From Auanema rhodensis (lineage: Eukaryota > Animalia > Nematoda), in contig OZ059897.1 of the NCBI GenBank assembly GCA_964057225.1, positions 7,936,001 through 8,000,000 of the forward strand: a stretch of DNA of 64,000 nucleotides. The letters run 5' to 3'. Shown one piece after another: positions 1 to 64,000 of this stretch (within the stretch, counting starts at the first letter, position 1; each line of letters begins with the position of its first letter). A program made the position numbers and the translations under genes. The notes under the pieces are model-generated. The model ran no database searches and was not told where the DNA came from. It saw only the letters and a list, made by a program, of their open reading frames with translations.

Positions 1-49
1 AATGACTTGTAGTTCGAACTTGATGTGCCAAGATATAACGAGAGCGTCA

Positions 50-122
50 GCCCGCGTGGCCTAATGGATAAGGCGTCTGACTTCTAATCAGAAGATTGTC
101 GGTTCGATCCCGGCCGTGGGCT
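50..122 (+). tRNA. tRNA-Arg(TCT), intronless, first of 36 copies (copy n starts at 50+194*(n-1))
   Basis: Cloverleaf: acceptor GCCCGCG/CGTGGGC, D-arm GCCT..AGGC, anticodon arm TCTGA-CT[TCT]AA-TCAGA, T-arm GTCGG-TTCGATC-CCGGC; followed by a T5-6 Pol III terminator. Confidence 0.96.
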
Positions 123-3100
123 TCATCTCTTTTTTCTTCAACACCTTTTGAATCTGGATAAAGTACATTTCTGATATTTTCAAAGTGTGGACCCAATGAC
201 TTGTAGTTCGAACTTGATGTGCCAAGATATAACGAGAGCGTCAGCCCGCGTGGCCTAATGGATAAGGCGTCTGACTTCTAATCAGAAGATTGTCGGTTCG
301 ATCCCGGCCGTGGGCTTCATCTCTTTTTGCTTCAACACCTTTTGAATCTGGATAAAGTACATTTCTGATATTTTCAAATTGTGGACCCAATGACTTGTAG
401 TTCGAACTTGATGTGCCAAGATATTAGGAGAGCGTCAGCCCGCGTGGCCTAATGGATAAGGCGTCTGACTTCTAATCAGAAGATTGTCGGTTCGATCCCG
501 GCCGTGGGCTTCATCTCTTTTTGCTTCAACACCTTTTGAATCTGGATAAAGTACATTTTTGATATTTTCAAATTGTGGACCCAATGACTTGTAGTTCGAA
601 CTTGATGTGCCAAGATATTAGGAGAGCGTCAGCCCGCGTGGCCTAATGGATAAGGCGTCTGACTTCTAATCAGAAGATTGTCGGTTCGATCCCGGCCGTG
701 GGCTTCATCTCTTTTTGCTTCAACACCTTTTGAATCTGGATAAAGTACATTTTTGATATTTTCAAACTCGGGACCCAATGACTTGTAGTTCGAACTTGAT
801 GTGCCAAGATATAAAGAGAGCGTCAGCCCGCGTGGCCTAATGGATAAGGCGTCTGACTTCTAATCAGAAGATTGTCGGTTCGATCCCGGCCGTGGGCTTC
901 ATCTCTTTTTGCTTCAACACCTTTTGAATCTGGATAAAGTACATTTTTGATATTTTCAAAGTCGGGACCCAATGACTTGTAGTTCGAACTTGATGTGCCA
1001 AGATATAACGAGAGCGTCAGCCCGCGTGGCCTAATGGATAAGGCGTCTGACTTCTAATCAGAAGATTGTCGGTTCGATCCCGGCCGTGGGCTTCATCTCT
1101 TTTTGCTTCAACACCTTTTGAATCTGGATAAAGTACATTTCTGATATTTTCAAAGTGTGGACCCAATGACTTGTAGTTCGAACTTGATGTGCCAAGATAT
1201 AACGAGAGCGTCAGCCCGCGTGGCCTAATGGATAAGGCGTCTGACTTCTAATCAGAAGATTGTCGGTTCGATCCCGGCCGTGGGCTTCATCTCTTTTTTC
1301 TTCAACACCTTTTGAATCTGGATAAAGTACATTTCTGATATTTTCAAAGTGTGGACCCAATGACTTGTAGTTCGAACTTGATGTGCCAAGATATAACGAG
1401 AGCGTCAGCCCGCGTGGCCTAATGGATAAGGCGTCTGACTTCTAATCAGAAGATTGTCGGTTCGATCCCGGCCGTGGGCTTCATCTCTTTTTGCTTCAAC
1501 ACCTTTTGAATCTGGATAAAGTACATTTTTGATATTTTCAAACTCGGGACCCAATGACTTGTAGTTCGAACTTGATGTGCCAAGATATAACGAGAGCGTC
1601 AGCCCGCGTGGCCTAATGGATAAGGCGTCTGACTTCTAATCAGAAGATTGTCGGTTCGATCCCGGCCGTGGGCTTCATCTCTTTTTGCTTCAACACCTTT
1701 TGAATCTGGATAAAGTACATTTCTGATATTTTCAAAGTGTGGACCCAATGACTTGTAGTTCGAACTTGATGTGCCAAGATATAACGAGAGCGTCAGCCCG
1801 CGTGGCCTAATGGATAAGGCGTCTGACTTCTAATCAGAAGATTGTCGGTTCGATCCCGGCCGTGGGCTTCATCTCTTTTTGCTTCAACACCTTTTGAATC
1901 TGGATAAAGTACATTTTTGATATTTTCAAAGTCGGGACCCAATGACTTGTAGTTCGAACTTGATGTGCCAAGATATAACGAGAGCGTCAGCCCGCGTGGC
2001 CTAATGGATAAGGCGTCTGACTTCTAATCAGAAGATTGTCGGTTCGATCCCGGCCGTGGGCTTCATCTCTTTTTGCTTCAACACCTTTTGAATCTGGATA
2101 AAGTACATTTCTGATATTTTCAAAGTGTGGACCCAATGACTTGTAGTTCGAACTTGATGTGCCAAGATATAACGAGAGCGTCAGCCCGCGTGGCCTAATG
2201 GATAAGGCGTCTGACTTCTAATCAGAAGATTGTCGGTTCGATCCCGGCCGTGGGCTTCATCTCTTTTTTCTTCAACACCTTTTGAATCTGGATAAAGTAC
2301 ATTTCTGATATTTTCAAAGTGTGGACCCAATGACTTGTAGTTCGAACTTGATGTGCCAAGATATAACGAGAGCGTCAGCCCGCGTGGCCTAATGGATAAG
2401 GCGTCTGACTTCTAATCAGAAGATTGTCGGTTCGATCCCGGCCGTGGGCTTCATCTCTTTTTGCTTCAACACCTTTTGAATCTGGATAAAGTACATTTTT
2501 GATATTTTCAAACTCGGGACCCAATGACTTGTAGTTCGAACTTGATGTGCCAAGATATAAAGAGAGCGTCAGCCCGCGTGGCCTAATGGATAAGGCGTCT
2601 GACTTCTAATCAGAAGATTGTCGGTTCGATCCCGGCCGTGGGCTTCATCTCTTTTTGCTTCAACACCTTTTGAATCTGGATAAAGTACATTTTTGATATT
2701 TTCAAAGTCGGGACCCAATGACTTGTAGTTCGAACTTGATGTGCCAAGATATAACGAGAGCGTCAGCCCGCGTGGCCTAATGGATAAGGCGTCTGACTTC
2801 TAATCAGAAGATTGTCGGTTCGATCCCGGCCGTGGGCTTCATCTCTTTTTGCTTCAACACCTTTTGAATCTGGATAAAGTACATTTCTGATATTTTCAAA
2901 GTGTGGACCCAATGACTTGTAGTTCGAACTTGATGTGCCAAGATATAACGAGAGCGTCAGCCCGCGTGGCCTAATGGATAAGGCGTCTGACTTCTAATCA
3001 GAAGATTGTCGGTTTGATCCCGGCCGTGGGCTTCATCTCTTTTTGCTTCAACACCTTTTGAATCTGGATAAAGTACATTTTTGATATTTTCAAAGTGTGG

Positions 3101-6100
3101 ACCCAATGACTTGTAGTTCGAACTTGATGTGCCAAGATATAACGAGAGCGTCAGCCCGCGTGGCCTAATGGATAAGGCGTCTGACTTCTAATCAGAAGAT
3201 TGTCGGTTCGATCCCGGCCGTGGGCTTCATCTCTTTTTGCTTCAACACCTTTTGAATCTGGATAAAGTACATTTCTGATATTTTCAAAGTGTGGACCCAA
3301 TGACTTGTAGTTCGAACTTGATGTGCCAAGATATAACGAGAGCGTCAGCCCGCGTGGCCTAATGGATAAGGCGTCTGACTTCTAATCAGAAGATTGTCGG
3401 TTCGATCCCGGCCGTGGGCTTCATCTCTTTTTGCTTCAACACCTTCTGAATCTGGATAAAGTACATTTTTGATATTTTCAAAGTCGGGACCCAATGACTT
3501 GTAGTTCGAACTTGATGTGCCAAGATATAACGGGAGCGTCAGCCCGCGTGGCCTAATGGATAAGGCGTCTGACTTCTAATCAGAAGATTGTCGGTTCGAT
3601 CCCGGCCGTGGGCTTCATCTCTTTTTGCTTCAACACCTTTTGAATCTGGATAAAGTACATTTTTGATATTTTCAAAGTCGGGACCCAATGACTTGTAGTT
3701 CGAACTTGATGTGCCAAGATATAACGAGAGCGTCAGCCCGCGTGGCCTAATGGATAAGGCGTCTGACTTCTAATCAGAAGATTGTCGGTTCGATCCCGGC
3801 CGTGGGCTTCATCTCTTTTTGCTTCAACACCTTTTGAATCTGGATAAAGTACATTTTTGATATTTTCAAACTCGGGACCCAATGACTTGTAGTTCGAACT
3901 TGATGTGCCAAGATATAAAGAGAGCGTCAGCCCGCGTGGCCTAATGGATAAGGCGTCTGACTTCTAATCAGAAGATTGTCGGTTCGATCCCGGCCGTGGG
4001 CTTCATCTCTTTTTGCTTCAACACCTTTTGAATCTGGATAAAGTACATTTTTGATATTTTCAAAGTCGGGACCCAATGACTTGTAGTTCGAACTTGATGT
4101 GCCAAGATATAACGAGAGCGTCAGCCCGCGTGGCCTAATGGATAAGGCGTCTGACTTCTAATCAGAAGATTGTCGGTTCGATCCCGGCCGTGGGCTTCAT
4201 CTCTTTTTGCTTCAACACCTTTTGAATCTGGATAAAGTACATTTCTGATATTTTCAAAGTGTGGACCCAATGACTTGTAGTTCGAACTTGATGTGCCAAG
4301 ATATAACGAGAGCGTCAGCCCGCGTGGCCTAATGGATAAGGCGTCTGACTTCTAATCAGAAGATTGTCGGTTCGATCCCGGCCGTGGGCTTCATCTCTTT
4401 TTTCTTCAACACCTTTTGAATGTGGATAAAGTACATTTCTGATATTTTCAAAGTGTGGACCCAATGACTTGTAGTTCGAACTTGATGTGCCAAGATATAA
4501 CGAGAGCGTCAGCCCGCGTGGCCTAATGGATAAGGCGTCTGACTTCTAATCAGAAGATTGTCGGTTTGATCCCGGCCGTGGGCTTCATCTCTTTTTGCTT
4601 CAACACCTTTTGAATCTGGATAAAGTACATTTTTGATATTTTCAAAGTGTGGACCCAATGACTTGTAGTTCGAACTTGATGTGCCAAGATATAACGAGAG
4701 CGTCAGCCCGCGTGGCCTAATGGATAAGGCGTCTGACTTCTAATCAGAAGATTGTCGGTTCGATCCCGGCCGTGGGCTTCATCTCTTTTTGCTTCAACAC
4801 CTTTTGAATCTGGATAAAGTACATTTTTGATATTTTCAAAGTCGGGACCCAATGACTTGTAGTTCGAACTTGATGTGCCAAGATATAACGAGAGCGTCAG
4901 CCCGCGTGGCCTAATGGATAAGGCGTCTGACTTCTAATCAGAAGATTGTCGGTTCGATCCCGGCCGTGGGCTTCATCTCTTTTTGCTTCAACACCTTTTG
5001 AATCTGGATAAAGTACATTTCTGATATTTTCAAAGTGTGGACCCAATGACTTGTAGTTCGAACTTGATGTGCCAAGATATAACGAGAGCGTCAGCCCGCG
5101 TGGCCTAATGGATAAGGCGTCTGACTTCTAATCAGAAGATTGTCGGTTCGATCCCGGCCGTGGGCTTCATCTCTTTTTTCTTCAACACCTTTTGAATGTG
5201 GATAAAGTACATTTCTGATATTTTCAAAGTGTGGACCCAATGACTTGTAGTTCGAACTTGATGTGCCAAGATATAACGAGAGCGTCAGCCCGCGTGGCCT
5301 AATGGATAAGGCGTCTGACTTCTAATCAGAAGATTGTCGGTTTGATCCCGGCCGTGGGCTTCATCTCTTTTTGCTTCAACACCTTTTGAATCTGGATAAA
5401 GTACATTTTTGATATTTTCAAAGTGTGGACCCAATGACTTGTAGTTCGAACTTGATGTGCCAAGATATAACGAGAGCGTCAGCCCGCGTGGCCTAATGGA
5501 TAAGGCGTCTGACTTCTAATCAGAAGATTGTCGGTTCGATCCCGGCCGTGGGCTTCATCTCTTTTTGCTTCAACACCTTTTGAATCTGGATAAAGTACAT
5601 TTCTGATATTTTCAAAGTGTGGACCCAATGACTTGTAGTTCGAACTTGATGTGCCAAGATATAACGAGAGCGTCAGCCCGCGTGGCCTAATGGATAAGGC
5701 GTCTGACTTCTAATCAGAAGATTGTCGGTTCGATCCCGGCCGTGGGCTTCATCTCTTTTTGCTTCAACACCTTCTGAATCTGGATAAAGTACATTTTTGA
5801 TATTTTCAAAGTCGGGACCCAATGACTTGTAGTTCGAACTTGATGTGCCAAGATATAACGGGAGCGTCAGCCCGCGTGGCCTAATGGATAAGGCGTCTGA
5901 CTTCTAATCAGAAGATTGTCGGTTCGATCCCGGCCGTGGGCTTCATCTCTTTTTGCTTCAACACCTTTTGAATCTGGATAAAGTACATTTTTGATATTTT
6001 CAAAGTCGGGACCCAATGACTTGTAGTTCGAACTTGATGTGCCAAGATATAACGAGAGCGTCAGCCCGCGTGGCCTAATGGATAAGGCGTCTGACTTCTA

Positions 6101-6839
6101 ATCAGAAGATTGTCGGTTCGATCCCGGCCGTGGGCTTCATCTCTTTTTTCTTCAACACCTTTTGAATCTGGATAAAGTACATTTCTGATATTTTCAAAGT
6201 GTGGACCCAATGACTTGTAGTTCGAACTTGATGTGCCAAGATATAACGGGAGCGTCAGCCCGCGTGGCCTAATGGATAAGGCGTCTGACTTCTAATCAGA
6301 AGATTGTCGGTTCGATCCCGGCCGTGGGCTTTATCTCTTTTTGCTTCAACACCTTCTGAATCTGGATAAAGTACATTTTTGATATTTTCAAACTCGGGAC
6401 CCAATGACTTGTAGTTCGAACTTGATGTGCCAAGATATAACGAGAGCGTCAGCCCGCGTGGCCTAATGGATAAGGCGTCTGACTTCTAATCAGAAGATTG
6501 TCGGTTCGATCCCGGCCGTGGGCTTCATCTCTTTTTGCTTCAACACCTTTTGAATGTGGATAAAGTACATTTCTGATATTTTCAAAGTCGGGACCCAATG
6601 ACTTGTAGTTCGAACTTGATGTGCCAAGATATAACGAGAGCGTCAGCCCGCGTGGCCTAATGGATAAGGCGTCTGACTTCTAATCAGAAGATTGTCGGTT
6701 CGATCCCGGCCGTGGGCTTCATCTCTTTTTGCTTCAACACCTTTTGAATCTGGATAAAGTACATTTTTGATATTTTCAAACTCGGGACCCAATGACTTGT
6801 AGTTCGAACTTGATGTGCCAAGATATAACGAAAGCGTCA

Positions 6840-6912
6840 GCCCGCGTGGCCTAATGGATAAGGCGTCTGACTTCTAATCAGAAGATTGTCGGTTCGATCC
6901 CGGCCGTGGGCT
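6840..6912 (+). tRNA. tRNA-Arg(TCT), last (36th) copy of the array
   Basis: Same sequence as the first copy. Confidence 0.95.
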
Positions 6913-7068
6913 TCATCTCTTTTTGCTTCAACACCTTTTGAATCTGGATAAAGTACATTTTTGATATTTTCAAAGTGTGGACCCAATGACTTGTAGTTCG
7001 ATCTTGATGTGCCAATAACGGGAGCGTTAACGACATCTAACATAGTGCAAACTCTCTTTTTATTTCAG

Positions 7069-7612
7069 CGTTTCGTTCCTCTACCAGCTTCCTCTCTTGC
7101 ATCATCTCTTAATTGTATCTTCATGAGGTGGAACGAGATGAAAACAGGTATTGAAGTTTATGACAAGGATGGTACTATTATTGGAGTCTCAAAAGTTGCT
7201 GCCCAAGCAGTATGTGATTAGTGCATAGACTCTTCAATTATTTAAATGTTTGCAGGCTGTTCGTGACACTACTCTAGTTAGAGCATTCCTCCCTGTACCT
7301 CTATTGTTAGCTCCTCCTTGTATATTACCATTTTTAGAAAAGTATGTTCGAATTATTCTAGTTTTACTGCATTGTACTGTCTAATTACTTGTAGGCTCAA
7401 ATGGGTTAAATCTTCGCCTGTTCGTCATTTACTTGTGAATGCTATGGTTTGTACTGTTTCATTTGCTTTATCACTTCCCGTAGCTTTGGCGCTTTTTCCT
7501 CAAGAATCTGCTGTAAGTTTTGAATTCAATATGCTTTCCCATTTTTTATTTTCAGATTCCAATCGAGAAACTGGAGAAAGAATTACAAGAAAAAACAAAA
7601 GCTACCGAACTC
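7069..7612 (+). CDS. sfxn-5: Sideroflexin (SFXN5-like), 3' exons 7069-7209, 7256-7341, 7395-7512, 7556-7612; last exon interrupted by the LTR element; 5' exons lie outside the window
   Basis: Spliced translation RFVPLPASSLASSLNCIFMRWNEMKTGIEVYDKDG..AVRDTTLVRAFLPVPLLLAPP..FALSLPVALALFPQESAIPIEKLEKELQEK matches the sideroflexin C-terminal half; GT-AG introns of 43-53 nt keep the frame. Confidence 0.9.
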
Positions 7613-7977
7613 GTTCCATTCGGAGACTCTATATATGTAACTGCAGGGTTAGAGCCAGACCGACTAGAGGAATGAGGAATGGCACCGCCTTCCCTCATGC
7701 CCCTATTCGGGAGTTCGCCCCTTTGCAAGCCCATGGACGGTTTGCATCTAACTTAGTTAATCTTATATATTAGTCTTTGTCTTGTAAATGTAGTTTACTT
7801 TATCCTTGTGTTAATGTATTGTAATGATATTGTATTGTGTATAATAAACCTATATATTTCCTTATCTTATGTAATCCTTATGCTCTGTTTCCATACCGCT
7901 ACACTTATGGAATACTATACGCGTAGTTGAGCAGACTACAATGGTCTGTTCAATATACGTAGGAGCATAATGGAACG
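7612..7977 (+). repeat. 5' LTR (366 bp)
   Basis: Direct repeat of 19320-19685 with no difference found by eye; terminal inverted repeat CGTTCCATT...AATGGAACG; TATATAT near 7630; AATAAA at 7843-7848. Confidence 0.97.
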
Positions 7978-7990
7978 TGGAGGTTCCACC
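7978..7990 (+). promoter_or_regulatory. Primer-binding site complementary to the tRNA-Gln 3' end
   Basis: TGGAGGTTCCACC directly after the 5' LTR is the reverse complement of GGTGGAACCT-CCA, the animal tRNA-Gln 3' end. Confidence 0.88.
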
Positions 7991-8960
7991 TCGAACTCAT
8001 TTTTGTCGCAAAAACTCGCATAAAAAGTCCATATTTTGATATCTAAATTAAAACTTCCTCCACGGTTAGCAACATAATGAGGGCGCCAACTTGTATAAGG
8101 TGCAGGTACAAGGGATCTCTCTTTTAGAGAGCTAGGACTACATAATTTTGAAATTTCACCCGCTGTCCCCACTCATAAAACCGTCTGAGTGTCCACCCTT
8201 ATAATACCGTATCCTGCACCGCTTCTCTTGCATTTTTTTTTGAGGACGTTTGGATCGAAATAGGGGACAATTTCACCAAACGAAATTTTGATTACATTAT
8301 TATTTGGCAACGAGGAGTTAGAATGAAATTTTGAAAGCGCACAAAGTTTAATATTTTATTGTGGTCAGGACTAGAGATTTGAAAGTTAAATTCAGGCGTA
8401 AAAGAGCATGCTAACTAAATATTTTTGCGGGAGCCGTTATTCGGTTTTTATTTTTTTTTTGATTGTGAGAATAGACCACACTAGTCCGAAAAATCCTGGC
8501 ACAAATTTTATTGCCTGTCAGGTCATTTTGGCGAAAGCACATGGGCTACGGATGTTTTCTTCTCCGTAGAATGTGTCACCTTCCTCAGCTCATTTTTGTT
8601 GCTAACATCATAAGATATTCCCACACACCTACCGTAGTATTCATATTGTAATATTCTATAAATTAGTAGAATGGTTTAAAGAAAAAAATTGCGTTTTATA
8701 AACGAGCTTTGGTCTCAGTCCATTAGTAAAATGAGCAATCTTTTTAAATATTCTCGGAATCTCATTAGCATGCCAAAATCATTCCGAAAAAGAATCGCCC
8801 ACGGCTTTTAATAATAACGTGCACATGAGCCATTTTCCCAAGGCGCACGCACTCCTTCTTTATTAATAAGCTCGACCAAAGTTTGTGTTATGGAAAAAAA
8901 AAAAAAAGAGAGAGAGAACAAATGAGTGAAATTAAGTATTTATTATATATGAAACAATTG

Positions 8961-9494
8961 TTAAAAGCCCCATTTAAAATGCAACTGTCTCACAAATTCT
9001 ATAGGCTGTGAGATGGGCTCATCGCTAGGCTCTAAATACTGCGAATACACCGAATCCGCAGAGGTCCTTAGCAATAAGCCCATAGGAGACTGTTCATAAA
9101 ATAAATAAATTTTAAACAAAATTTTAGACATATAATCATAAAAATCATGAGACTTATGCTCATACCAATTCCAAGGGGATGCGACCAGATTTGGGTTTTC
9201 ATACCAATGCGCGCACAAGTCGGTGAGGCACCATCGCCGGATAGCTGCAACCTCATCCGCTATTTCCTGCATTAGGGAGAAGTTTACTAATCCCCTTCCC
9301 AGATAATGCATCTTTAAATCCTCAATAAACTAAAAATTCTTATTAAGATAACATGTTTCTTTGTTTTAACCAACCATCTTAATTATGTCTGGGTGCGGCC
9401 TATAAGCTAACACTTCGTCTTGATCATACAAGACGAGGTCAGCGTACAGCTTCCTCAAGACAAAAGTCATTCCCGATAGACCTTCATAAGCCAT
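8961..9494 (-). CDS. Antisense two-exon accessory gene in the retroelement leader (exon 1 9494-9375, intron 9374-9330, exon 2 9329-8961), 162 aa, unknown function
   Basis: A 40-codon ATG exon joins the 116-aa ORF in frame through a 45-nt GTTGGT...TTTTTAG intron that contains an in-frame stop; A-rich sequence precedes the ATG. Confidence 0.7.
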
Positions 9495-9907
9495 TCTTTG
9501 ATTTATTTTTTTTTTTCAGCTCTACAAATATAAAGATTCTTATGCATAAAAAGGGGACATAAAACGACTGAAAATCTCTCTCATACTTTCAAGAATTCAA
9601 TTAGAGTAAAGTATTAAGATTGAGGCTAGAAAGAGCGAAGACCAAAAAAAATTTATAATTGATGAACATCTGTGAAATAGAATAAAGAAAAGAGAATACG
9701 GTAGATAGGCGGAGCCAGATCTCAGGCCAAGATTTTAAAACTCTTTCTCATCTAATAACGATTCTCGGCGAAAGACGCCACGTCTCAATCTTCAAACGTT
9801 TCTTACTTTTCCTATAACCGACCCGAATTTCTTGTCACTCATTCAACGTCAACATCCCCCATATAACGAAACACTCGCGGTTTTTCCGAACCAAGAGTGA
9901 TTCCAAA

Positions 9908-12900
9908 GTGGCACGAAGATACTCTTCGGCCGTCCCTGCTCTATACCCTTCTGAGTCCAGTGACGACATCGCAGTCGCCAGTCGAACCAGAAGCCGCACT
10001 CGACTCCTCAGTGTTCAGATTGAAGAGCCTGAACAAGAGGTAAAACCCAAAGTCGAGAAAACCTTCATTCCTCGAGAAGGCACGTATTCACCTCCGGACA
10101 ACACCGAGGAGGACCCTGATTTCTATATTCAGGACTACAATATTCAAACTTCAGCTTCAACTCCAAAGGTACACTCTTTTAAAAGTAATAAAAAGATTCA
10201 AAAAATTCAAAAACCAAAACAAATAACCTCTAATACTTCACCAGCCACTCCCCACCTAAACTTATCAACTTTATCAGTTAATACTGATAACGATCTTGCA
10301 TCTTCTTTTGAACTAACTCTAACACCGCAGGCATTTTCCACTCCGATAGAAAACTCACAACTTAATAAAACCTCATCTCTCACTATTCGCAAATCACCCT
10401 TATCAGTTATCACTGATAAGCTTGATTCGAAAAAGCTTGATTCTAAAAAAATTAATAAAAGAAAAACTAATACACCGCGTAGGCGCTCAACCTCTAATAA
10501 TCCCGTAGAACCAAATCAGGAAATTACCGAAGTTTTGCCCTTATCACTAACTACTGATAAGTTCAAAAGTAAGAAATCTTTAACAGCTCGCTTAATAAAA
10601 GTTTTGAATTTGTCTCCAGGGGAGGTAACAACAGAACAAGTTGATAACTCTCTTCACGTATCCTCCAACCCAACCCTTAATAAGTCAGATAGCGCTATAC
10701 CCAGCTCAAGCGTATCAATACATTCGACGCCTCAGGCAACGAGTCGAATTATCAAACTCCCAGGGAAGCGGTTCTCCTCAGCCGCCCCTACCATTAGTTA
10801 TCCAACATCTGGTAACTCGAAAAAGGGAGGTAAGAATTTAACGGCGAGAAGCTCAGGCAGTAAAGGGATTACGTCATCTCGCACATACCCTGAGGATATA
10901 CCAACCATGACGGAGACACCACGTCTTCCGGGAGCTGGTAAATCTACCATTGCGCACGCATTAAGCTCACCTTATTGCCCCATATACGACGGAAGTCGTA
11001 ACTTTAGAGATTTCGTGGCAAAGTTTAATACCTTTTCTAACGCCTTAGGCTTAGTGATGCCCGAAAGACTAACTATTTTACCATTACTATTGAAAAATGA
11101 TAGAGCAGAGGAAGCTTATTTAGAGCTACCTGACAAGGTCAGAACTGCTGGACCTTGGGTTACCCTAATAGAAGAGTTAACATCCAAGCTGTGTCCCGAA
11201 TACAATCAAGACCCTGCCCTTATCACACTTCAAAACAGCACTCAAGGCGATTTATCAATTGATGGTTTTGCACAAACGTTAAGAAACCTCAGCTTAAATG
11301 CTTTCTCTAATAGTGATACTCATAAAGATCACATTCTGAGGTCCACATTTTTGAGAGGCTTGAAAAATACGATACGCCCAGGGGTAATTCGAGCAAAACC
11401 CAAAACTTTTGCTGAGGCTGTTGATAGTGCTCGCTGGGAGGAATCAATTGCAAACCAAGTAGCAGACCCTCAGGCGCTATTGGTTAACGCAATTGAAAGA
11501 ACTTTCCCCCCGCGCAGAAACAATGGTGGGAGAGGTATGGCAAGAGGTTATCAATCTTTTAATAATAAAAATTATCAAAATTATAATAATTATAACAATT
11601 ATCATCCAAACTTTCAAAACAATCAAAATTATCATAAATTTTCAAAAAATCAAAAAGGCTGGAATTTCCAAAACCCATTTGCTAGGAACCGCAATTTTGG
11701 TGACCGCGGTCGAAATTATCAGAATCAAAATCAAAATGGGTATCAAAGAAGCCATAATGCATCACAAAATCAAGAAATGAGCAATAATAGACAGAGAAAT
11801 AACAGTACCTTTAGGGGAAATAACAACAATAGAGGCAGAGGTAGAGGCTCAAGAGTCAATAATTTGACTCTGATATCTCCTTTGACTTTAGCCGTAGCTT
11901 TATCAGTAATCTTATCACTGGTTACAACAGCTGAAGCATACCAGCTATGTACTAAAGCTACTGGAGGAGCCCTTCTCCGTCCCCCATCTCTCCGAAAATG
12001 CTTATTACCACCAATAAAGCATATCTTACGAACAAAAGTTCATCTTTATACAAGGAATCAAACGGCACATGAATGGGATGCATGGAGATGCTCCAAAGAA
12101 ATTCATAAAATGTGTATCAGAGACCTTTTGTTCCTTAGAGATACCAATACAACGATAGCGAGAATTGAAAAGATACCAGCTGCAGAATGCAGACTGGCAG
12201 TGAGAGATAGAAGATGGAATTGGAGTGAATTAAAGAAGATCGACAGCATAACATATGCAACTGACGAGCCTTCCTTCTCGCCAGGCCGATCTTTTAATAA
12301 TGAGCTATGTGAAGAGAAAGCCAGATTGGTTATCGAAAGAGGGGTTATGACACGGATGCCAGATGAAACTATAATCTCCAATTTAATACTAAATACTGAA
12401 GGATGCTTAGCGCATCATGGAGAATGTGCATCAGATACCTCAATCATCATATGGGAGAAACAGCCTTATGAATATCGATGCAACTATATCGACATGAGTG
12501 AATATGATGTGATAATTGGAGACGGCATTATTCTGTTACCAACCACTCAATCAGCCCTTGTAATCGATCAAAAAGAGATACCGAAGCAAATATCTTCTTG
12601 TTTTAAACAGCCAATCTTCCACACCACAACTGGCAATTACATTCTCTTACCACAGTACCCAAATGACACCAATATCCATGTTTTAATAGAGAGAGAATAT
12701 AAGAAACTTCCGGCGAAAAGAGATAAAAGAGCAATTGCGGAATGCACGGTTGAATTAAACAAGGAGTGGATACAAAAACAGGAAGATTTTGAAACTTTAA
12801 TATTAAATATTTGTCCTTATCCTTTCTTACGACCGGTGATGAGTAATCCTGGTATTTATCAGATAATACCGCTTATAAAGGCCAGACGAGCTGTCAACCC

Positions 12901-15900
12901 TTCATATTCAATTATTGACTGGGTTTCAGCACATCCCGAGAAGTTTTATTTCTTCTTAAGAAGTCCCGTATCTGATAAATCCATACAACGTTTCCTTCAA
13001 ACATACGAAATACACGACCCTGAGGAAGCAATACTTTATTTTCTTGCGCAAAAGGAACTGGCAGCAACCACTCGCGGCGCTATACGGTATTTAACCTCAC
13101 AACAATTATTAGAACAGATAGGTGACAGATTAACAGCACACGAATTTGACGAAAAACTGCTAGAAAAAGACGGATCCTACCGTGAAAGAGCCGAAAGCAT
13201 AGCGATGGAGTTAGCTTATACACCGGTAATATTTGAAAACAATCTGTCGGTACCATCAAGGCAAGAGGTTTTAAAATCCTTTGTGAACATGCCGCCGATC
13301 CGACCAACTCTAACAACTGACAATGCTGATGAGCGTATAGTACTTAGAAACACTCTTTACTTATACCATAACTTGATGACATTGCGAGTAATAAGGCCAA
13401 ATAAAACAGCAGCAGCCGTAGATGATGAAAAGTTCCGACAATTAACAATCAATGTGCCAGATACCAACAAATTATATCGAGATAAAGATTCTAACTACGG
13501 TATATCGATAGGGCCCCACCCTCGCATTCAAAACCCAAGCGCAGATACACGCCAGCTACTTATAAAAACATTTTTACCACTGTTAGAGGATATTGAAACA
13601 CCGCCTTATCTGACTAGAAGACTGTCATTAACGACAACAACGGACAAACCCGCTTCACTAGTTCAGGAGACAACTAAAAGCCATACGACTCGGATTCCGA
13701 CGACAACCACAGTTGAGACGACAACAGCCGCGATAACTACGACTCTCTCGCCAACAACATTAGCAACAGTCACTGACACGGCGTCACGAATCTTAAGGAA
13801 ACAAAGAACATCATCTCCACCCGTAGAAACCAGAGAAATTCAGGCTCAGGCAACGTATACAGCGTCAAAAGTGAACAACGAAATACAATTCAACCTCAAC
13901 GTATCTCGCAGAATAGCTCAAGATCATCTACAATATACAACAACACTCATACAAGAAGAGCTACAGAAACATTTCATGGAATCTTATGAATCCATATGTG
14001 AGATTCAAAATAGATACCTCGAGCTATGGCGTTCTATTTTACACATAGAACCTACAATAGCAATGAGGACTATTTTAGGAAGAGAGGATATTGCAGCCCG
14101 TTTCGTAGGCAGCGATATAGTTCATGTTCATATATGCCTACCTCTTCAACCTAAAGCTGTTTATCATAATCATAAGATCAATGATACATGCTATTTGGAA
14201 ACACCAGTAATAACAGAAGATGAGAGATTATATTTTGCTGCTCCAGGATCAAGAGACTTATTAACACATGGAAAAGAGATAGATTGCGAACATGTACCCA
14301 CAGATGTATACTATCAAAATGGAGAATGGATAAATATAAATGGATCGGTTGAAGTAAAACCAATATCACTCTTTGATAAAGCGCAATACCACCAATTAAC
14401 ACCTTTAAAGTTCACAGGCGCTAACTTATACACCAATTTATCATTGAGAGTTTACTCAATGTCAACAGCTATTGCATATGGAGCAAGTTTAGCATCCATA
14501 CGACAGAACCATGTTTTACATACTATTCACAACGATCCAAAAATTACGTCCGCCTTTAATCTTTTGAAAAAGGGCAGTGACTATATCTCTAAAGCAGCTG
14601 AGTTCACAACTTCCGCCTGGACTAGCGTAAAGCAATTTCTAATAGGATCAATTGAGAGAACACTCATCTTCATAGGATCAATGGTTACGATTGCCGCAGT
14701 ATTAATAATTCTTTTCGTTGTTGCTAAATTTTGGTTCTTCAGAGCCACTCCACTAACCGTAATGCATGTCCACGAAATAGATAATGAGCCCCCAAGCTAT
14801 GAAGAAACATTGGAACTTGTAAGCCGCCCAGACCAACAGATGCCAGATAACATCATGAAGCAATACTATCCTGCTTTAGTAACATTTATTCCAATCGCAA
14901 TACCATTTGTTGCTTCTATTGTATCAGCGGAAACAAAGTTACCATTAATATATATATCAGTTGAAGATAAACTGATTTTAGCTTTATGGGATTCAGGCTC
15001 ATCAGTGTCATATGTTAGGCTCTCCACCCTCAAATATCTGAACATGGCCGAAAATGTCAAGAAGAGACATTTAGTAGCGATGGCAGCCAACAAGTCCACT
15101 TTCACATTTTATGGAAAGATAAATCTTGTAATTGAAATTGCCGGTTACGAGATCGAACACACCTTTTTGGTCTCAAACGATCATGACTGTCCTGCTCCCG
15201 CTTTAATTGGACTAGATTTCATGAAAGCGCTTGACAGCGAAAACATCGACGTCAGCCTTAAACCATCCAAGAAGAGGTTGGAGATTGGAAACAATGCCAT
15301 CCCATTAATAGGAAACGAATCTATTAAGCATACGGAGATAACTGTGAATATCATTAATTTAAGAACAAAAACATTAAAGCCTGATGAAGAGGCACCTATC
15401 CCAATAAAGACAGATAAACCACTAGAATCTAACGAAGTGGTTGTCTTAGGGGATAGTGGAAGCGCATTAAAATCATTATATCCAACTGCGTTTCGTGATA
15501 CCAGTGGAGTATATGTTATGTTCCGTAACAATACCGATGAAACAATAGCTATGGAAGCTAATTCAGTCATCGGACAGGCAATAATTGGAGAAATTCCGGC
15601 TTGTGAACCCTTTAAGCATAAGCCAATTCTACCATATGTTCCGCCAGAGGCCGATTGGGAGAGTAAACTACCATATTTTCCAAGAGACTTCATAAAAGAT
15701 CTTGATCTAGAGAATGCTGATCTCACGAAAGAAGAAAAACATGAGCTTACAAAAATAATTGAAAGCCATCGTGAGGCATTTCTTAACGAGGACAGGAAAA
15801 TAGGCTTATTTAAAGGTCCTATAGAGCATACCATACCATTGAGAACAGATATGGATATGCCAAAGCCGAGAATAACACGTATTCCCTTAGGAAAACAGGA

Positions 15901-18613
15901 AGAAATTGAAAAACAAGTCAAAGAAATGCTTGAGCAAGGCATAATAGAGCCTTCTACATCTCTATTTAATAGCCCTGTAGTACTAGTTAAGAAGAAAGAT
16001 GACACGTATAGGTTTGTGACAGATTTTCGAGCTTTAAATAATGTCACACGCAAGCAAACTTATGTCATTCCAAGCATTTCTGACATAGTTGATTTGGCAG
16101 CAGGCGCCCAATTTTTCTCAAACTTCGATTTAGTGTCAGGATTTTTTCAAATATCCTTGAGAAAATCAGATCGACCACTAACAGCATTTACGACCACATC
16201 CGGCACATACCAGTACAAACGGATGCCGATGGGCCTTTGTGGAGCCCCTCATACCTTTCAAACAGCAGTAAGGTATTTGCAAAGTAAATGTTCTTGTAAA
16301 CTATTTGTTTATTTGGACGATCTATTAGTTATATCTGATACAAGAGAACAACATCTCAAAGATATCGATGATTTACTGCAAGCAGTAGAAGAATTGGGAA
16401 TGAAGATAAAGCTTAAGAAATGCGCTTTTGCTCAACCAGAAGTGAAATTTCTAGGACTTATTGTAGGACGTCAAGGTATAAAACCTGACCCTCAAAAAGT
16501 CGCCGCCATACAAGATTATCCGGCACCAAAGAATGCAACAGGTGTACGAGCATTCTTGGGAATGGTTGGATTCTTTCGCAAATTCATGAAAGATTTTGCA
16601 CGTATCGCAAGCCCTTTATACGATCTGACAAAGGCAGATACTGAATTCAAATGGGAAAACAAACATCAAGAAGCTTTAGACCTCCTTAAAAGAAGTTTAA
16701 TACAGGCACCCGTTTTAAGCCCACCTAAATCGGACCGCTTGTTTATAGTTGAAAGCGACGGTAGTAACATCGCCATAGGTGCTGTATTATTACAACCGGA
16801 AGATCCAAAACAACCTCTGAAAAATCTACACCCTATCGCATTTGCAAGCAGAAAACTAGTTAAAGCCGAACGTAACTACGCACCAATCGAGATAGAAGCA
16901 TTAGGCCTTGTATATGCATTAAATCAATTCCGTACATACATTCTTGGAACTCATACTATATGTATTACGGACCATCGACCTCTTACCAGCTTAATGACAC
17001 GCAGAGACTTATTTGGTCGTCTTGCGAAGTTCCAGCTGGTCATCCAAGAATATGATATTGAAATAAAATATCGCGCAGGCCAATTAAATAAAGTATGCGA
17101 TGCTCTATCTCGATATATAGGTGAAGAAGCTAACGATGCTAAGCCGGAAACAAAGAAGAAGAAAATGGAAGAAATTCACATTAACGCCATAAATACACCA
17201 ACAATAAAGGAAATTCAACTAAGCACCCCTTGGATTAAACGGACGATAGCGGAGATTGAATATAGAGCACAAAAGAACATGACAGCTAATGACAGATATT
17301 GTGTCATAAATGACTTGCTCTATACAAAACCAACAGACAAAAAGCCACAACCCGCTATCGTAATACCACAAGAACACCCCATAATTGAGGAAATAATCAA
17401 AGTTTTTCATGAGGATCCTACAATTGCAGCACATCAAGGAATTATTAAAACAAAAGAAGCAATTCTAAGAAGATTCTATTGGACAAATATGCAGAACGAC
17501 ATTACTATATTCATCAAGAACTGCATTAAATGTGCTCAAAGAAAAAAAGATCCACATTCCATGACGGTACAACCAATAGGTCATTTTGAGATACCAAGCA
17601 AGCCATTTGAACGAGTCCACATGGACGTAATGGGACCATTTCCCCCTTCAAAAAGAAACTGTACCTACGTCATTACCATGCAAGACGCATTTACAAAATG
17701 GTCAACAACAATTGCTGTACCACAAATAACAACGGAAATCACAATTGATCGATTTCTAAGACATTTCGTTTACATTTTTGGACCACCCCATCGCTTGATC
17801 ACCGATAGAGGTTCAAACTTTGTATCTAAAAAGTTCGAAGAAATGTGTACTAAACTTGGAATCAAACATGAACCAACACTACCACACCAAAAGAACTCAA
17901 ATGGACAAGTGGAAAGACTTCACCGAACCCTCGAAGAAGGATTAACCCACTACTTAAAAGAGGACCTTAGTGACTGGGATACTGTATTACCAAAAATCAC
18001 TTTTGCTATTAACAATATTCAGCACGCGACTACAGGGATTGCGCCATACATTGCATTATTCGGTAAAGAATGCAGAATGTCAATGGACGCTGAATTACCA
18101 GAAACGATCACCAAAATTCAAGAAATTTCTGAAGAATTACTCCAAAGAAGACCAGATATGGACAAGAGAGACGAAATAATAAAGAACCGCATAGCTAAAA
18201 ATCAAGAAAATGCGAAAAAGAAGAAAGATAGAACGCAAAGAGCACACCATAGAGACATTCAACCGGGCGACATGGTGATGACGACTATAAAATCACACCA
18301 AATCGGCCAAAAGCTTCGGAAAAGCTATGATGGACCATGCGAAGTCATCAACGTAGAAGGATCAAAAGTTCAAATCAGAAATTCATCAGGAAAACTACAA
18401 GATATCCACAAAGATAACTTGAAAATCTTCTCTCCTGCTTCACAAAACATCTCTTACAACACTCGCGCAAGGTTTCGAGAAAGTCAAGCAGAAGAAGATA
18501 GCGACATCGAAATAATAGAAGTGATCAACAGGAACAACAAGGATAGCATAGATACAGAGCCAGAAGATGAAAATGAAGACGAAATATGGCTTCCGAGGAA
18601 TGAAGAAGAATAA
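9908..18613 (+). CDS. Single polyprotein: S/T/K-rich extension, Gag capsid, N/Q/RG-rich region, signal peptide, gB-like Env, TM, protease, RT, RNase H, integrase (first ATG at 10907)
   Basis: Gag-CA-like [26 protein letters not shown] (10976-11440); LALWDSGS protease (D at 14990); YLDD (16310-16321); RNase H [20 protein letters not shown]..DALSR; integrase H..H..CIKC, HMD, TDRG, QVER. Confidence 0.96.
   Translation: [2901 protein letters not shown]
11864..14740 (+). other. env: Env-like region inside the polyprotein: class III (herpesvirus gB-like) fusion glycoprotein
   Basis: Signal-like [47 protein letters not shown]; furin site RDKR; [44 protein letters not shown]..TCY resembles the gB central helix region; several N-X-S/T sites; TM at ~14660-14740. 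Confidence 0.85.
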
Positions 18614-19308
18614 CAACAAGATAATGCTACGTTATTTAAATTATTGTAACAAAATAACGATGAATTAAAAAAAAAAAAAAAAAAATTAATGCTAAATAAC
18701 ATTCAAAATAAAAATAGCATTTAATAGAGATTGAGAAAGGAAAAATAAGGCAAATTCTAAACGAGGAGATGTTATGACTAATGGTTCCAAGTTACCGTAA
18801 TCCTATGCGGACTAGAGGACATTTTGACAACCATCCGAGCTCCATGTGCCTCTCCAAATAAGATGAGATGAACACTGGTAGGCGTATCAACCACAATTTC
18901 ATCTTAAGTGGTAGTCTCCATTAGTAATCAAGGATTCACTCTGGGAGACATATGGAGACACATTATTAAATCATAATCTCGGTTCAATTTAGAAATGAGT
19001 ACTTCTTGAGACCATTAGTCAAAATAATAACATATTCCCATTCATTACTAGCCCCTTTATTCTACAATCTCTATTAGGAAATGCTTGAATATTAAGATAA
19101 TTAATTTATGAAATTAATAATATTCTAATTCATCGTCCCTTCATATTATATTGAACCCTTCTTATAAATTATTGTAATTTTGTTTGTATACTAACTAAAA
19201 CTCTATCATACTATAGTTATTGTGAAGCTAAAACAATTGAACTCTAAAACTCAGTTACATATAAGCCCAAATTTTTGTTTAAAATATCGCGAGGTCGCGA
19301 CAATCTTT

Positions 19309-19317
19309 GAAAAAGGG
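19309..19317 (+). promoter_or_regulatory. Polypurine tract
   Basis: GAAAAAGGG just before the 3' LTR, preceded by a small TCGCGA-GG-TCGCGA hairpin. Confidence 0.75.
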
Positions 19318-19319
19318 CA

Positions 19320-19685
19320 CGTTCCATTCGGAGACTCTATATATGTAACTGCAGGGTTAGAGCCAGACCGACTAGAGGAATGAGGAATGGCACCGCCTTC
19401 CCTCATGCCCCTATTCGGGAGTTCGCCCCTTTGCAAGCCCATGGACGGTTTGCATCTAACTTAGTTAATCTTATATATTAGTCTTTGTCTTGTAAATGTA
19501 GTTTACTTTATCCTTGTGTTAATGTATTGTAATGATATTGTATTGTGTATAATAAACCTATATATTTCCTTATCTTATGTAATCCTTATGCTCTGTTTCC
19601 ATACCGCTACACTTATGGAATACTATACGCGTAGTTGAGCAGACTACAATGGTCTGTTCAATATACGTAGGAGCATAATGGAACG
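19320..19685 (+). repeat. 3' LTR (366 bp)
   Basis: Direct repeat of 7612-7977. Confidence 0.97.
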
Positions 19686-19690
19686 AACTC

Positions 19691-19711
19691 TTCTACAACA
19701 AAGGTCTTTAA
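19691..19711 (+). CDS. sfxn-5: Displaced final codons of sideroflexin (FYNKGL-stop) after the 3' LTR
   Basis: TTC TAC AAC AAA GGT CTT TAA directly follows the duplicated target site; NKGL is the conserved sideroflexin C-terminus. Confidence 0.92.
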   Translation, partial: FYNKGL

Positions 19712-22700
19712 GTTGATAATAATGACAGCAGTTATGATTTATGCATTTCGTCCTGATTGTTCTTCGAGAATATCAAATATCATTAGTTTAGTTATTGATC
19801 TAAATAAAGAATTGTGTTACTTTTTGAATAGAAATTATTTTTATAAGGAAATATACTGTATTCGATTGAACTGAAATTCAAAATTGATGAGATACCTGAG
19901 ATCTTGTTTGGAGTAGATTTATAGAAAGTATAGACGTATTGAAGAACTGTCATAGGTAGCAGAAACTGTAATAAAACCAAAAACATTGTTTATATAAAAT
20001 AAAAAAAAGATAATAATATCATCTAACATCATATGCAACTTTCACTATGTATATAATTTTATTTTGGTCTCTATTCGTTCTATTTTCCTTAATCTGGATA
20101 TTTATTGTATGCTTTGTCAACGTTAAGACAAACATTTACAGTAATATAATGAAAGATATAATTGTTTTTTCTTGTACTTAATCGAAATTCGTCAAATATA
20201 CAAAACGAAATCTTAATTAAAATCTTTAAAATACATTGTTCATATCAAGAATTCTCTGTCACAGTTCCATGAACCTACCATAGTACTTGCTCATTTCAAA
20301 TTGTGAACATTGCTTGGTCTTTTGAGTCTAATATGTTATGCACGATAGAGATTAAGTGACTCACTTATACGTATTATCAACACCTACAACCTAACTTAAA
20401 TACTATATAAACTTGGAGTTTAAATAGTTTTCTTACTATTTTACAATACTAGCTCATTGAAATAATTAGATTTGTTTTTAAAATTATATAAACTTCATCT
20501 ATAAACTATGCTAATTATAATCTTGTTCTATATTTATTTTAAATAAATATCTTATCAGAATTTTAATATATTTTTCTTTGCTCATAATAGTTTCCAAAAG
20601 AATATTTTTCTTTTCACATGTTTTCATTTTGTGAAATAACAGGGTCAAGTGTAGATCTTCTCATTTACATTTGTGATGTATGAGGTGATAGCAAAAACAT
20701 GAATAAGATACAATGAACAGAACATCTCTTTCTCATTCTCTCTATCTCATCTCTTCAAATTACTCATCTCTCAGATGTTCTTCAGTTATTTAAACGAAAA
20801 AGATTTAAAAATCAATAAAGATTTCAAGTTCAAAGTTTCAATGAAATCGAGATAAGTTTTAAGAAAGAACTTCATTAGCGTGTTGTGAGCTTTCAAACAG
20901 AAGAACATTACGAATAATTTAATAATGATCGATATGTAATAGTAATATGAACTATTTATCTTGAATATTTGCATTATGTTTCTTCAAGATTCATCTCATA
21001 ATTTCATTCTTCTTCTTCTCAAAGTACTGTATTTTGATTGCTTTCAGTCATGCTTCTGTGAGATTATTTAAATATATTTCCTATTTTATCTTTCTTATCT
21101 TCAATAATTCTTTTTCATATCGTTTCTAATGGACAATATACAATTATGCGTACGAATTATATAAAGAAAGGAAAATGCTACTGACCACTTCTCTCTTTCT
21201 CTCAATGCATTTATCATCAAATAGCTTTTCAACATCTTTTTCCCACAATATCATCTCATACAAACTCATAAACATTTTGTTCAAAAACAAACTCAGATGA
21301 TCATTATCCAAAGAGACACAACATATTTTCTAAACTGCAAACGATTTTTTTTTCAAGTCATCGTGCCCTCATGCGACGTCAAGCATTCCGGAGATAAAGC
21401 GAGAACGTGAAAATAAAGTTTAAATCTTTACTCCCAGTTTTTTCTTTTTTTTCCTTGTTTTTTTTTCTAAAATAATCTACGAACCCTTGTAAACAAAATG
21501 AACAGATTATGCTTTTAATTTAATTTTTTCATAACAACAAAACGGTTATTGTTTGTTTTTTGATTTATTCTGAATCTTTTAACTTTTCTATATAATGTGA
21601 AATGAATATTAGGTCTCTCTTATCACTCTTTTGGTTGCTTCCTGAGATCGGCTTGACCTTTTTGCCTTCTTCATAAAGCAGCACCTCTCTCTCTCTCTCT
21701 CTTTGTAGATGTGTGACCTCGTTGATAAGATATTTCTTGGACATCAAATGCTTTATAAAGATCAGTCTGTTTATCCTCAGGGGGTCCTTATGCATTTGAT
21801 TACCGATAAAGTCTCTTTCACCTATCTATCTCTATCAACTTCGTTGTCATTGTCTTAACACCATCATTCTCTCTATGATTTTGTCTTTGACCTCTTACTC
21901 TTTCTCTCTTTCGTATATTTCATCTCTCATCTCACAGCACCTCCCTCGTCACTCTCATTTACATTTGATATGTAACTGTCTCTACTTCTTTCTTCTCAAA
22001 ACATTCGATACTCATGTATCTGAAACTGAAAGAAGATAGTAAGATACTCCAGAAATTAGTGAAAAGCTGTTTGAAATGAACTCAGACACAAATCATTGGC
22101 GCTACTAATCACATGTCACAACAGTGCAACTAGAAAACAAATAAAAAACAATAAAGATGAACCTTATGATGAATAGAACTTAAAACCTCATTGATAAGTA
22201 AAATCTGTTGAAATTAAGTTCTAAAACCAATCCGATAGAGAGCTATTAGTGAGCTCTCAGAAAAGAAGAATGCGGACGAAAACCTGTTACTTTTCACTGA
22301 ATTTTCCGTTCCCCCATTTTCGAGTTTGTTTTGCTTCGTGATGTGTCAACAAACTTTGACTCTAACCCTCTATAAGGAAAAAATCTTTCGTTGACCAGCA
22401 CTCTGAGCACAATGAGACAAGAGATTCTCTCTATAATCGACAATTTCATATACATTTTGATATTTCTTTTCCTTTAAGTTTCATTTCAATTGTATTCAGA
22501 AATATCTAATAGTTATCTTCATATAGAACATCGTAATGTGTATGTTTCTAATCAACAATTACTTCTTGTGCTGTTAAGAATCTAAACTTGAATCAAGCTA
22601 GTTGCATGCTGTATCCAGTTCATAGGATTAAATCTCGTCTTTCCTCTTCATTGTTACATAAGATTTAAAGTTTGTGACGTTATTCGCTCTACTCAAGACG

Positions 22701-47200: not shown

Positions 47201-47564
47201 TCGTCTCTATATTATTTGAAAACTCTCTTCTACCTGAGGGGCATTACTATCAACGTCATTGTTTCTACTGTCAGTTTCTACACTATCGTCTGTCTCATTC
47301 AGTGCTTGTACCTGTGTCTCCATGATGTACTATTCGTTATGTCTTTTGTCGTTTACGTCTTTTCATTTTGTTTCTCCCCGTATTTCGAATTTTTCAGTTT
47401 TTCACGTTGCTTTCTCTATTCTCTATTGTCTATTATCTTTATACAGTTTGTTACCACATTTGTACTTGGTTTACATGCTTCTTCTTCTTATTTATTCTTA
47501 TGTTTCTGTTTATATATCTTTGTATTTCTCTCTCAACTTAATTTTTTACAGTCTGAACCTAATA

Positions 47565-62430: not shown

Positions 62431-63783
62431 TAAAAAATACAAATATCATTGAATAAAATGTACAAACTGGGTAAATATGCAGACAGTTTACCAACGAAAA
62501 CCTTAAAAAAGAAAAGAAAAGTACTTAGAACGGCTCTATAAAACTATTAAAACATTAATGTAATCCTTTATAATAATTTTTGAACCATAGGCCACACCTC
62601 TAAATATGTTATCAGTCTCTCTTATAAATATCTAAGTTTGAATCATAGATGAATCGACTACAAACACCGAGATAATTATTTACAGTATTGCATCAGTTGC
62701 TTGGGATCTACACAAAACTTAATTTATTCAAAATCTAGAACAGAAACAAAACAGCTTCAGAAGCTTCTGATTATTTAATTAGAAATATTTAAAAATGAGT
62801 CAAAAATTCATTTCAACATGCGATTAATGGAAGATTAATATTAATAATTCCAACTGACCTTGGATTTTATTTTTCATGCCTATTTTATCTAAAAAATGAG
62901 CAAAATCTTTCCAGGGGTTTTACTAAGAAGCATTGATGAATCTAAATATAAATGAAAATTTTCTGATAATCTTTCAATGTTTAATCACTCAAATTTGTCT
63001 TTTTCCTCTTCATTTTCATTATTTTTTTATTTTAAAAAATGTTTATAGAAGTTGAAAATCAATATAACTAACAATTTAGTCAAAAAGATTTCGACGTAAT
63101 GGAAAATACTTCAAAGAAAAAAAAGTTTAACTTACTATATGAAATAAAATGTTGGAGGTATATCCCGTATCATACACGTTTTCATTTCCTGTTTTATTAT
63201 CTGTTTCTCCTTTTTTACGTTCAATTTCGAGCATTCATCTGTTTCTCTTATGGTATTCAAATTTTTTCTTTCTGATCCATTCTGTGTTCATGCTTGCCAT
63301 AAACTATTCTGTCGATTTCGAGAGTTACCAAATTGTCAAGTGAATCATCTAAAAAAATTGAAGAATATATATTTATAATCAGAAAACTACAAGCTACAGC
63401 CTGGCCAATTCTATGCTGACAATTGGAGAATAAAATTAAAGTTAAAAAACAATAAAATACATTCATTAGGGTATTTAACTACACAATTCTATGTATTGAA
63501 GCCGATCCGGACATTTCTGTTTTCGTTTCTTCTATTTTTCCGGCAAGTAATAAGATTTATGAATGTGGTCGTTGACGTAAAAGTTCACGTATGTACTGTA
63601 TGACGGAATCGGTTGACGTAAAAGTTCACGTACGTATAAAAAACACTATCATAGCAGTTCCTGCACCTGTTCTATGAATGTAAGTATTATATGACATGTA
63701 CTACTATTTTATAAATCTTTTCAAACATATATAAGGAGTACACGTACTATTGTTTTATACTACAGATATGGAACTTTGCCGTA

Positions 63784-63856
63784 GCCTCGTTAGCTCAGCT
63801 GGTAGAGCGTTAGACTTTTAATCTAACGGTCAGGGGTTCGAGCCCCCTACGGGGCT
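63784..63856 (+). tRNA. tRNA-Lys(TTT)
   Basis: GCCTCGT/ACGGGGC acceptor, GCTC..GAGC D-arm, TTAGA-CT[TTT]AA-TCTAA, AGGGG-TTCGAGC-CCCCT; T-runs downstream. Confidence 0.96.
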
Positions 63857-64000
63857 AAATTTTACACTTTTATGTGTTTAAAACGAAAAAAATACGAGGA
63901 AGAATGATAACGATGTTCGTTTACTATCCTTTCTTTACTAAATAAAAAAAAGCTTACTATTAATTAAACCACATTTTATTTAAAATTATGTTTAAATACA

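Follow-up and report, generated by a model that had tools for sequence, protein, structure and literature searches.

A probably intact Ty3/gypsy endogenous virus of Auanema rhodensis with a predicted class III fusion protein between Gag and Pol

Introduction

The env-bearing nematode elements of the BEL/Pao family (Tas, Cer7/13 and Atlas) carry a captured fusogen, and their env lies behind pol. The canonical plan of the Metaviridae and errantiviruses laid down by the ICTV also has env behind the integrase (PMC7879559). According to the text of PMC6431247, the planarian element Burro (GYPSM1) instead encodes one polyprotein in which an in-frame env, similar to the fusion glycoproteins of mononegaviruses, separates gag from pol. 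GAG-ENV-POL elements with a gB-type Env are described by Chary and Hayashi (eLife 2026; PMC13524379) for Nematoda, Bryozoa and Platyhelminthes; their text covers 36 nematode elements, 8 of which have a primer-binding site for tRNA-Gln, and credits the nematode layout to Sacco et al. 2022, cited there for nematode endogenous retroviruses with flipped ENV and POL and for a metavirus that captured the glycoprotein of an RNA virus. The same text calls the entry mechanism of gB-type elements unknown and the mechanism of transmission elusive outside Drosophila.

Here, we analyzed a stretch of 64,000 nucleotides from the nematode Auanema rhodensis, referred to as the window, which holds a long element of this kind. 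An earlier note on this DNA had suspected that the layout was undescribed. As it is in print for Burro (PMC6431247) and for nematodes (PMC13524379), at least in the text of these papers, the window element is a new member of the described nematode gag-env-pol group. We consider it probable that the element belongs to this clade as a Ty3/gypsy endogenous virus that is intact and was inserted recently, with a polyprotein that is likely threaded through the endoplasmic reticulum (ER) and a predicted class III fusogen on the luminal side.

Compared with the known systems, the window element departs from the canonical errantivirus plan in that env lies between gag and the protease and not after the integrase. 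The BEL/Pao elements named above are likewise nematode LTR elements but belong to another family. The nematode errantiviruses in the text of PMC13524379 have the same order as the window element, with a gB-type Env between a signal and a transmembrane (TM) segment; none of the 36 listed elements is from Auanema, and the window element adds an Env insert of about 285 aa. The passages searched in that paper do not mention a single frame, a processing model, an antisense gene or a non-AUG start, all of which are treated here. Burro, as described in the text of PMC6431247, has a flatworm host, a length of 4,873-5,140 aa, CCHC knuckles and BIR, BCL2 and ankyrin cargo, none of which was seen in the window element.

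Overall organization of the element

The features of the element are listed in Table 1. The 5′ and 3′ LTRs showed no difference across all 366 bp, as the earlier note had claimed. LTR termini are usually TG...CA; here, they were CG...CG within an inverted repeat of 8 bp (7612-7619 and 7970-7977). The target-site duplication could also be read as 6 bp with LTR ends that are one base shorter. The primer-binding site was the reverse complement of the 12 bases given for tRNA-Gln in the text of PMC13524379, and the same 12-mer is found there in Clat_errantivirus_4 and Ctro_errantivirus_1; the LTRs of Clat_1 and Crem_1 in that text are 370 and 372 bp long, respectively, compared with 366 bp here.

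Table 1. Positions of the features of the window element, including the antisense gene in its leader.
Feature	Position	Strand	Remark
Left target-site duplication, 4 bp	7608-7611	+	repeat copy at 19686-19689; inside last exon of host sideroflexin gene
5′ LTR, 366 bp	7612-7977	+	inverted CG...CG ends
Primer-binding site, tRNA-Gln	7978-7989	+	directly 3′ of 5′ LTR
Antisense gene, exon 2	8961-9329	-	122 codons and stop
Antisense gene, intron	9330-9374	-	45 nt, GT..AG
Antisense gene, exon 1, coding part	9375-9494	-	AUG 9494, 40 codons
AUG-free open stretch, 363 codons	9818-10906	+	Ser/Thr/Lys/Pro-rich; likely a non-AUG-initiated N-terminal Gag extension
Gag from first AUG	10907-11863	+	capsid and nucleocapsid-like part
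Internal signal-peptide-like segment	11864-11938	+	ends AEA/Y, predicted cleavage
Env ectodomain	11939-14662	+	predicted class III fusion protein, gB/mononegavirus G type
Furin-type site RDKR	12719-12730	+	
Env insert of about 285 aa, predicted helical	12734-13591	+	followed by Thr/Ser-rich stretch to about 13850
Env transmembrane anchor	14666-14734	+	
Env tail and linker	14735-14929	+	protease-like motif, PPSY, Pro-containing hydrophobic segment
Aspartyl protease	14957-15226	+	DSG intact; Pfam aa 1714-1803, E 7e-4, below cut-off
Reverse transcriptase and RNase H	15986-17053	+	YLDD intact; Pfam
Integrase and C-terminal tail up to stop	17381-18613	+	H2C2, core
Polypurine tract	19309-19317	+	ahead of 3′ LTR
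3′ LTR, 366 bp	19320-19685	+	AATAAA at 19551

In the pol region, Pfam placed RVT_1 at aa 2057-2215, RNase H at aa 2279-2412 and the integrase at aa 2522-2690. When a profile of the family was compared with the PDB, Ty3 Gag-Pol was the best match, and Ty3 Gag-Pol and Ty3 RT were the top two. We found in the element two sets of characters used in the Metaviridae definition (PMC7879559), namely two LTRs with a primer-binding site after the 5′ LTR and a polypurine tract before the 3′ LTR, and a PR-RT-RH-IN order with a Ty3-type RT, which supports its earlier assignment to the Ty3/gypsy type.

Polyprotein reading frame and Gag

A stop-free frame of 2931 codons spans capsid to integrase (9818-18613). 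Pfam and hydropathy revealed the order that the earlier note had read within it, in which Gag is followed by a signal, Env, a TM segment and PR-RT-RH-IN. The start given there as 9908 is a GTG codon; the first AUG is found at 10907 and gives a protein of 2568 aa.

AUG was absent from all frames between 9665 and 10906. The chance of 363 codons being open ahead of the first AUG was 3e-9, and codon shuffles of the stretch led us to expect a mean of 6.1 out-of-frame AUGs, where none was present (P 0.0004). The relative P0024 similarly has 313 Met-free residues upstream of the Met at its capsid. These features suggest a non-AUG start with scanning onward to AUG 10907. One copy in run X8 had a stop at codon 3 of the frame, so any non-AUG start must lie further downstream.

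The match of Gag to Pfam Ty3_capsid was weak (E 0.003), and a profile built from capsid regions matched aa 385-548 with an E of 1.7e-34. The Metaviridae definition also includes capsid and nucleocapsid domains in gag, of which the capsid is present here. The nucleocapsid-like part is basic and rich in Asn, Gln, Arg and Gly; we searched Gag for a CCHC knuckle and found none, the Asn/Gln-rich basic part being in its place.

Structural comparison of the Env ectodomain with class III fusion proteins

The earlier note had asked whether the middle region has the fold of a fusion protein, and searches by sequence and by predicted structure both led to class III. Pfam Monjiviricetes_fusion matched aa 1371-1511 with an E of 5.7e-15 (above cut-off), and Glycoprotein_B matched aa 1368-1454 with an E of 6.4e-9 (below cut-off). 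In a sequence search of the PDB, all 44 of the 44 matches up to E 10 were herpesvirus gB, the best showing an E of 0.0003. An AlphaFold model from a 30-row alignment, used in place of an earlier one from an 8-row alignment (pLDDT 36), had a mean pLDDT of 67 and a pTM of 0.44; most values in the two conserved parts were 75-95, and the model was poor at the insert borders, in the Thr-rich stretch and in the membrane-proximal part. Foldseek matched this model to HSV-2 gB (E 7e-12) and to the G protein of a rhabdo-like virus (E 1e-15), and its matches also included G of nyami- and chu-like viruses, with Midway nyavirus G at rank 6; the global TM-scores were low because the domain arrangement of the model is uncertain. 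The top ten VIA-align matches were all class III fusogens, the best being HSV-1 prefusion gB with a Z-score of 10.1 and an rmsd of 7.2 for 394 aligned residues (model range 1-818). On the basis of these comparisons, the middle region is a predicted class III (gB-type) fusion protein.

The ectodomain had been described as Cys-rich and about 900 aa long. The length was right (909 aa), but the richness in Cys was not, as we counted only 16 Cys (1.8%, compared with 1.2% in Pol), of which 14 are conserved in relatives and the two non-conserved ones sit in the insert. The length of the ectodomain is due to this insert of about 285 aa, located behind the furin-type site, and to the Thr-rich stretch. 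Among the proteins compared, the insert was common only to those of Auanema, and it had no match in the atlas search, which otherwise gave matches of 0.76 only. A candidate identity of the insert as a PEG10 capsid-like domain (VIA-align Z 3.8) was rejected, as the capsid profile did not bear it out. A furin-type site was present in 13 of 17 ectodomains, 247-307 residues in, and N-glycan sequons were barely enriched in the ectodomain (1.1 versus 0.7 per 100 aa). No relatives of Env were found in viral contigs.

Antisense leader gene and transcripts

A small gene on the antisense strand of the leader comprises 162 codons in total, with exon 1 in phase with exon 2. We infer that the AUG at 9494 is used; those at 9470 and 9377 are likewise in phase. 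Four runs (X12-X15) were treated as RNA because three host introns are spliced in them, with no run being on record as RNA; the host introns spliced in their contigs are 43-53 nt long, a size that suggests a nematode host, as do the relatives in Auanema and Caenorhabditis. The antisense intron was skipped in contigs of three of these four runs, all from one study, and retained in DNA contigs. Among 1.84 billion representatives, exon 2 had one homologue, P0130, which was 58% identical from the first exon codon through to the shared C-terminus; no relatives of the exon were found in metagenome contigs or Pfam. The spliced antisense gene is thus probably real, and as to its function, an accessory regulator of expression or of host silencing is our guess.

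The nematode gypsy element Cer1 exports its RNA by means of a spliced accessory protein, as described in the text of PMC10309623. The accessory gene of Cer1 lies on the sense strand and that of the window element on the antisense strand, so the precedent is one in kind only. For gag-env-pol elements, we met neither an antisense gene nor a non-AUG start in the passages searched, although the figures of PMC13524379 or the paper of Sacco et al. 2022 may show them. Sacco et al. 2022 reportedly found a continuous gag-env-pro-pol frame, a likeness to nyamivirus glycoproteins and an extra small hypothetical ORF, with which the antisense gene described above may or may not be identical.

On the sense strand, RNA contigs covered the 3′ part of the element and ended at 19570-19589, just behind AATAAA. 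The long 3′ contigs of three RNA runs started at 16181-17069 (window 16181-19589), a pattern in which 3′ bias and a shorter transcript are indistinguishable.

Membrane segments and proposed processing of the polyprotein

The hydrophobic segment ending in AEA/Y was present as the earlier note had described it, and the TM segment that it had put at about 14660-14740 was also found. Among the proteins examined, a signal-like segment lay ahead of Env in all 18 of the 18 reaching upstream of Env, and Env was followed by one strong TM segment, about 100-145 residues before the protease Asp, in 26 of 26. Additionally, the stretch leading up to the protease contains a further hydrophobic segment, the third (14873-14929), which had been missed earlier. 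On an approximate scale of insertion energy, the signal scored 0.2 (relatives -0.8 to 1.8), the TM segment -2.3 and the third segment 2.3.

A V/I-N/H motif is present where the capsid borders on the nucleocapsid and where RNase H borders on the integrase. The same motif occurred just ahead of the signal in 10 of 18 proteins (background 6%) and just behind the TM segment in 11 of 26 (background 10%), in related proteins and with a motif picked after the sequences had been viewed. We take cuts at these motifs by the element's own protease, which would free Gag and Pol, as a lead. The PPxY motif in the Env tail was found only in the window element and P0002 among the proteins examined, and a role as a general budding motif was therefore ruled out.

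Flavivirus polyproteins consist of a capsid, an internal signal, a luminal glycoprotein, a TM segment and cytosolic enzymes, and they are cut by the signal peptidase of the host on the luminal side and by the viral protease on the cytosolic side. The likeness of the window element to them is one in the way of working only, without homology; the window element is a reverse-transcribing LTR element, and its fusogen is of class III and not of class II. The conserved signal, TM segment and furin sites fit an ER-threaded polyprotein with Gag in the cytosol, Env in the lumen and Pol in the cytosol. In such a scheme, translation would start at an upstream non-AUG codon, with scanning through to AUG 10907. 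The internal signal would enter the translocon and signal peptidase would cut after AEA, Gag staying held by its C-terminus like the flavivirus capsid. Env would fold, trimerise and be cut by furin at RDKR, and the TM segment would stop transfer so that Pol emerges on the cytosolic side. The protease, gathered on Env trimers, could then cut the V/I-N/H motifs before the signal and after the TM segment, freeing Gag and Pol. Finally, capsids would form and take Env-bearing membrane, allowing cell-to-cell spread towards the germ line, and the antisense leader gene would likely have an accessory role in regulating either expression or silencing by the host.

In most LTR elements, the packaging of Pol rests on a Gag-Pol fusion. 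Once signal peptidase has cut as predicted, Pol is no longer joined to Gag and would have to be packaged via RNA or membrane, or from chains that missed the signal. This packaging would be solved if one frame served two routes, with Env made by ER threading and packaged Pol made either from chains that miss the signal and remain in the cytosol as Gag-Env-Pol or from a message with env spliced out in frame. The weak score of the signal next to that of the TM segment speaks for these two routes, as does the use of splicing by the element in its antisense intron. However, the ORF contains a single TTTCAG acceptor, at 12924, with no other close to the border of env and pol, and the only strong splice donors found by a scan were at 9222 and 10829. 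An env-skipping joint was absent from the RNA contigs, but this absence carries no weight given their sparse coverage of env. Overall, we regard the two routes as rather unlikely.

One objection to a cytosolic Pol is that the third hydrophobic segment might direct it to the lumen instead. If this segment were a second membrane span, most Pol would be destroyed there, which would lower the ratio of Pol to Gag. Its mean hydropathy of 2.19 over 19 residues and its conservation in the Caenorhabditis/Auanema/Diploscapter subclade are in favor of such a span; against it, the segment contains 2-4 prolines, scores below 2.6 in only 2 of 25 proteins and is mostly missing from hookworm and Meloidogyne elements (5.5-12.6). 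We therefore give a second span very little weight, and the segment is more likely a surface-bound or re-entrant anchor.

Returning to ER threading with Pol on the cytosolic side, a broader proposal can be put forward tentatively, and we think it possible but not probable. Nematode elements of this group may follow a flavivirus-like life plan, with a non-AUG polyprotein, a Gag anchored to the ER by its C-terminus, Env trimers that activate the tethered protease, a Pol that is packaged although it is not fused to Gag, and an undescribed regulator or silencing suppressor encoded by a conserved, spliced gene antisense to the leader. The layout itself, being published, adds little; the extras are the antisense gene, the AUG-free extension, the Env insert, the protease-like motifs flanking Env and the proposed processing route. 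Of these, the antisense gene and the AUG-free extension would be regulatory parts beyond those described in the passages searched. The value of the element is as a young, multi-copy, transcribed example for asking how one frame gives rise to a capsid, to a fusogen in the lumen and to enzymes that are packaged; it also bears on whether gB-type elements outside Drosophila pass between cells.

Gene order in relatives and in other copies of the element

An RT-IN search gave 157 long proteins, of which the best 120 were examined. In a tree of 120 RT-RH rows, made with FastTree only, with SH-like support and exclusive of the published reference gag-env-pol elements' own sequences (P0002 and P0030 were too short and were left out), Env was ahead of RT in 25 rows including the window element, behind RT in one, and without a match in 94. 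The 25 rows with Env ahead formed one side of a branch with an SH-like support of 100, so the RT phylogeny that the earlier note had called for groups the order in one clade. At least 24 relatives share the gag-env-pol order, although most are gene predictions in which splices may be hidden; 22 of the 24 are named as nematodes, of the genera Caenorhabditis, Diploscapter, Ancylostoma, Oesophagostomum and Meloidogyne. The window element was placed among Caenorhabditis and Diploscapter elements, the nearest named ones being from Caenorhabditis. Gag, env, protease and RT are likewise joined in frame in an Auanema protein that is 46% identical. P0053, a long polyprotein that has a capsid and hydrophobic segments and for which PF24664 is listed, lies outside the nematode clade and was not scored as env-bearing; it may represent the gag-env-pol layout in a different lineage.

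The gag-env border was bridged by DNA contigs of four runs from three studies (X1, 10745-13158; X4, 11670-12454; X6, 11301-12267; X8, 7968-13158), and contigs of the same runs tiled the env-pol border. The best-matching DNA run may be the window's own source. In run X8, the host flank was mostly uncovered and the element nearly identical. Sibling copies were judged from sequencing runs. The env/pol depth ratio was 0.98-1.17 in three DNA runs, and the depth of the element was 18-41 times that of the flank, which suggests many env-bearing copies, though no copy number can be derived from it. Env differences between copies were synonymous in 13 of 23 cases and included 0 stops (P 0.0004-0.003).

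The order is unusual beside the canonical plan of PMC7879559, but it is extremely improbable that env arose by a single nested insertion, is decaying as a relic or results from misassembly, in view of the contigs across both borders, the relatives with the same order and the synonymous excess in env, and with the intact frame these agree with the working design that the earlier note had argued for.

Insertion site and flanking DNA

The host gene was identified as a sideroflexin by Pfam SFXNs on exons upstream of the element. The insertion severed its last six codons (window 7556-7675 and 19686-19713), and spliced RNA contigs run from the last sideroflexin exon into the 5′ LTR, whose frame adds 20 other residues and a stop. 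In all four RNA runs, contigs joined LTR sequence (window 7611-7996) to other flanks, a sign of additional transcribed insertions or of solo LTRs at other sites.

Upstream, a 194-bp unit with a tRNA-Arg(TCT) gene is repeated in tandem across window 1-6914; its 36 copies are 97-100% alike, and the element starts 700 bp behind this array. Downstream, a 328-codon open frame with a Ser/Pro-rich low-complexity middle and no Pfam match (window 47238-48224) is probably a host exon with flanking intron, and a single tRNA-Lys(TTT) gene lies at window 63783-63857.
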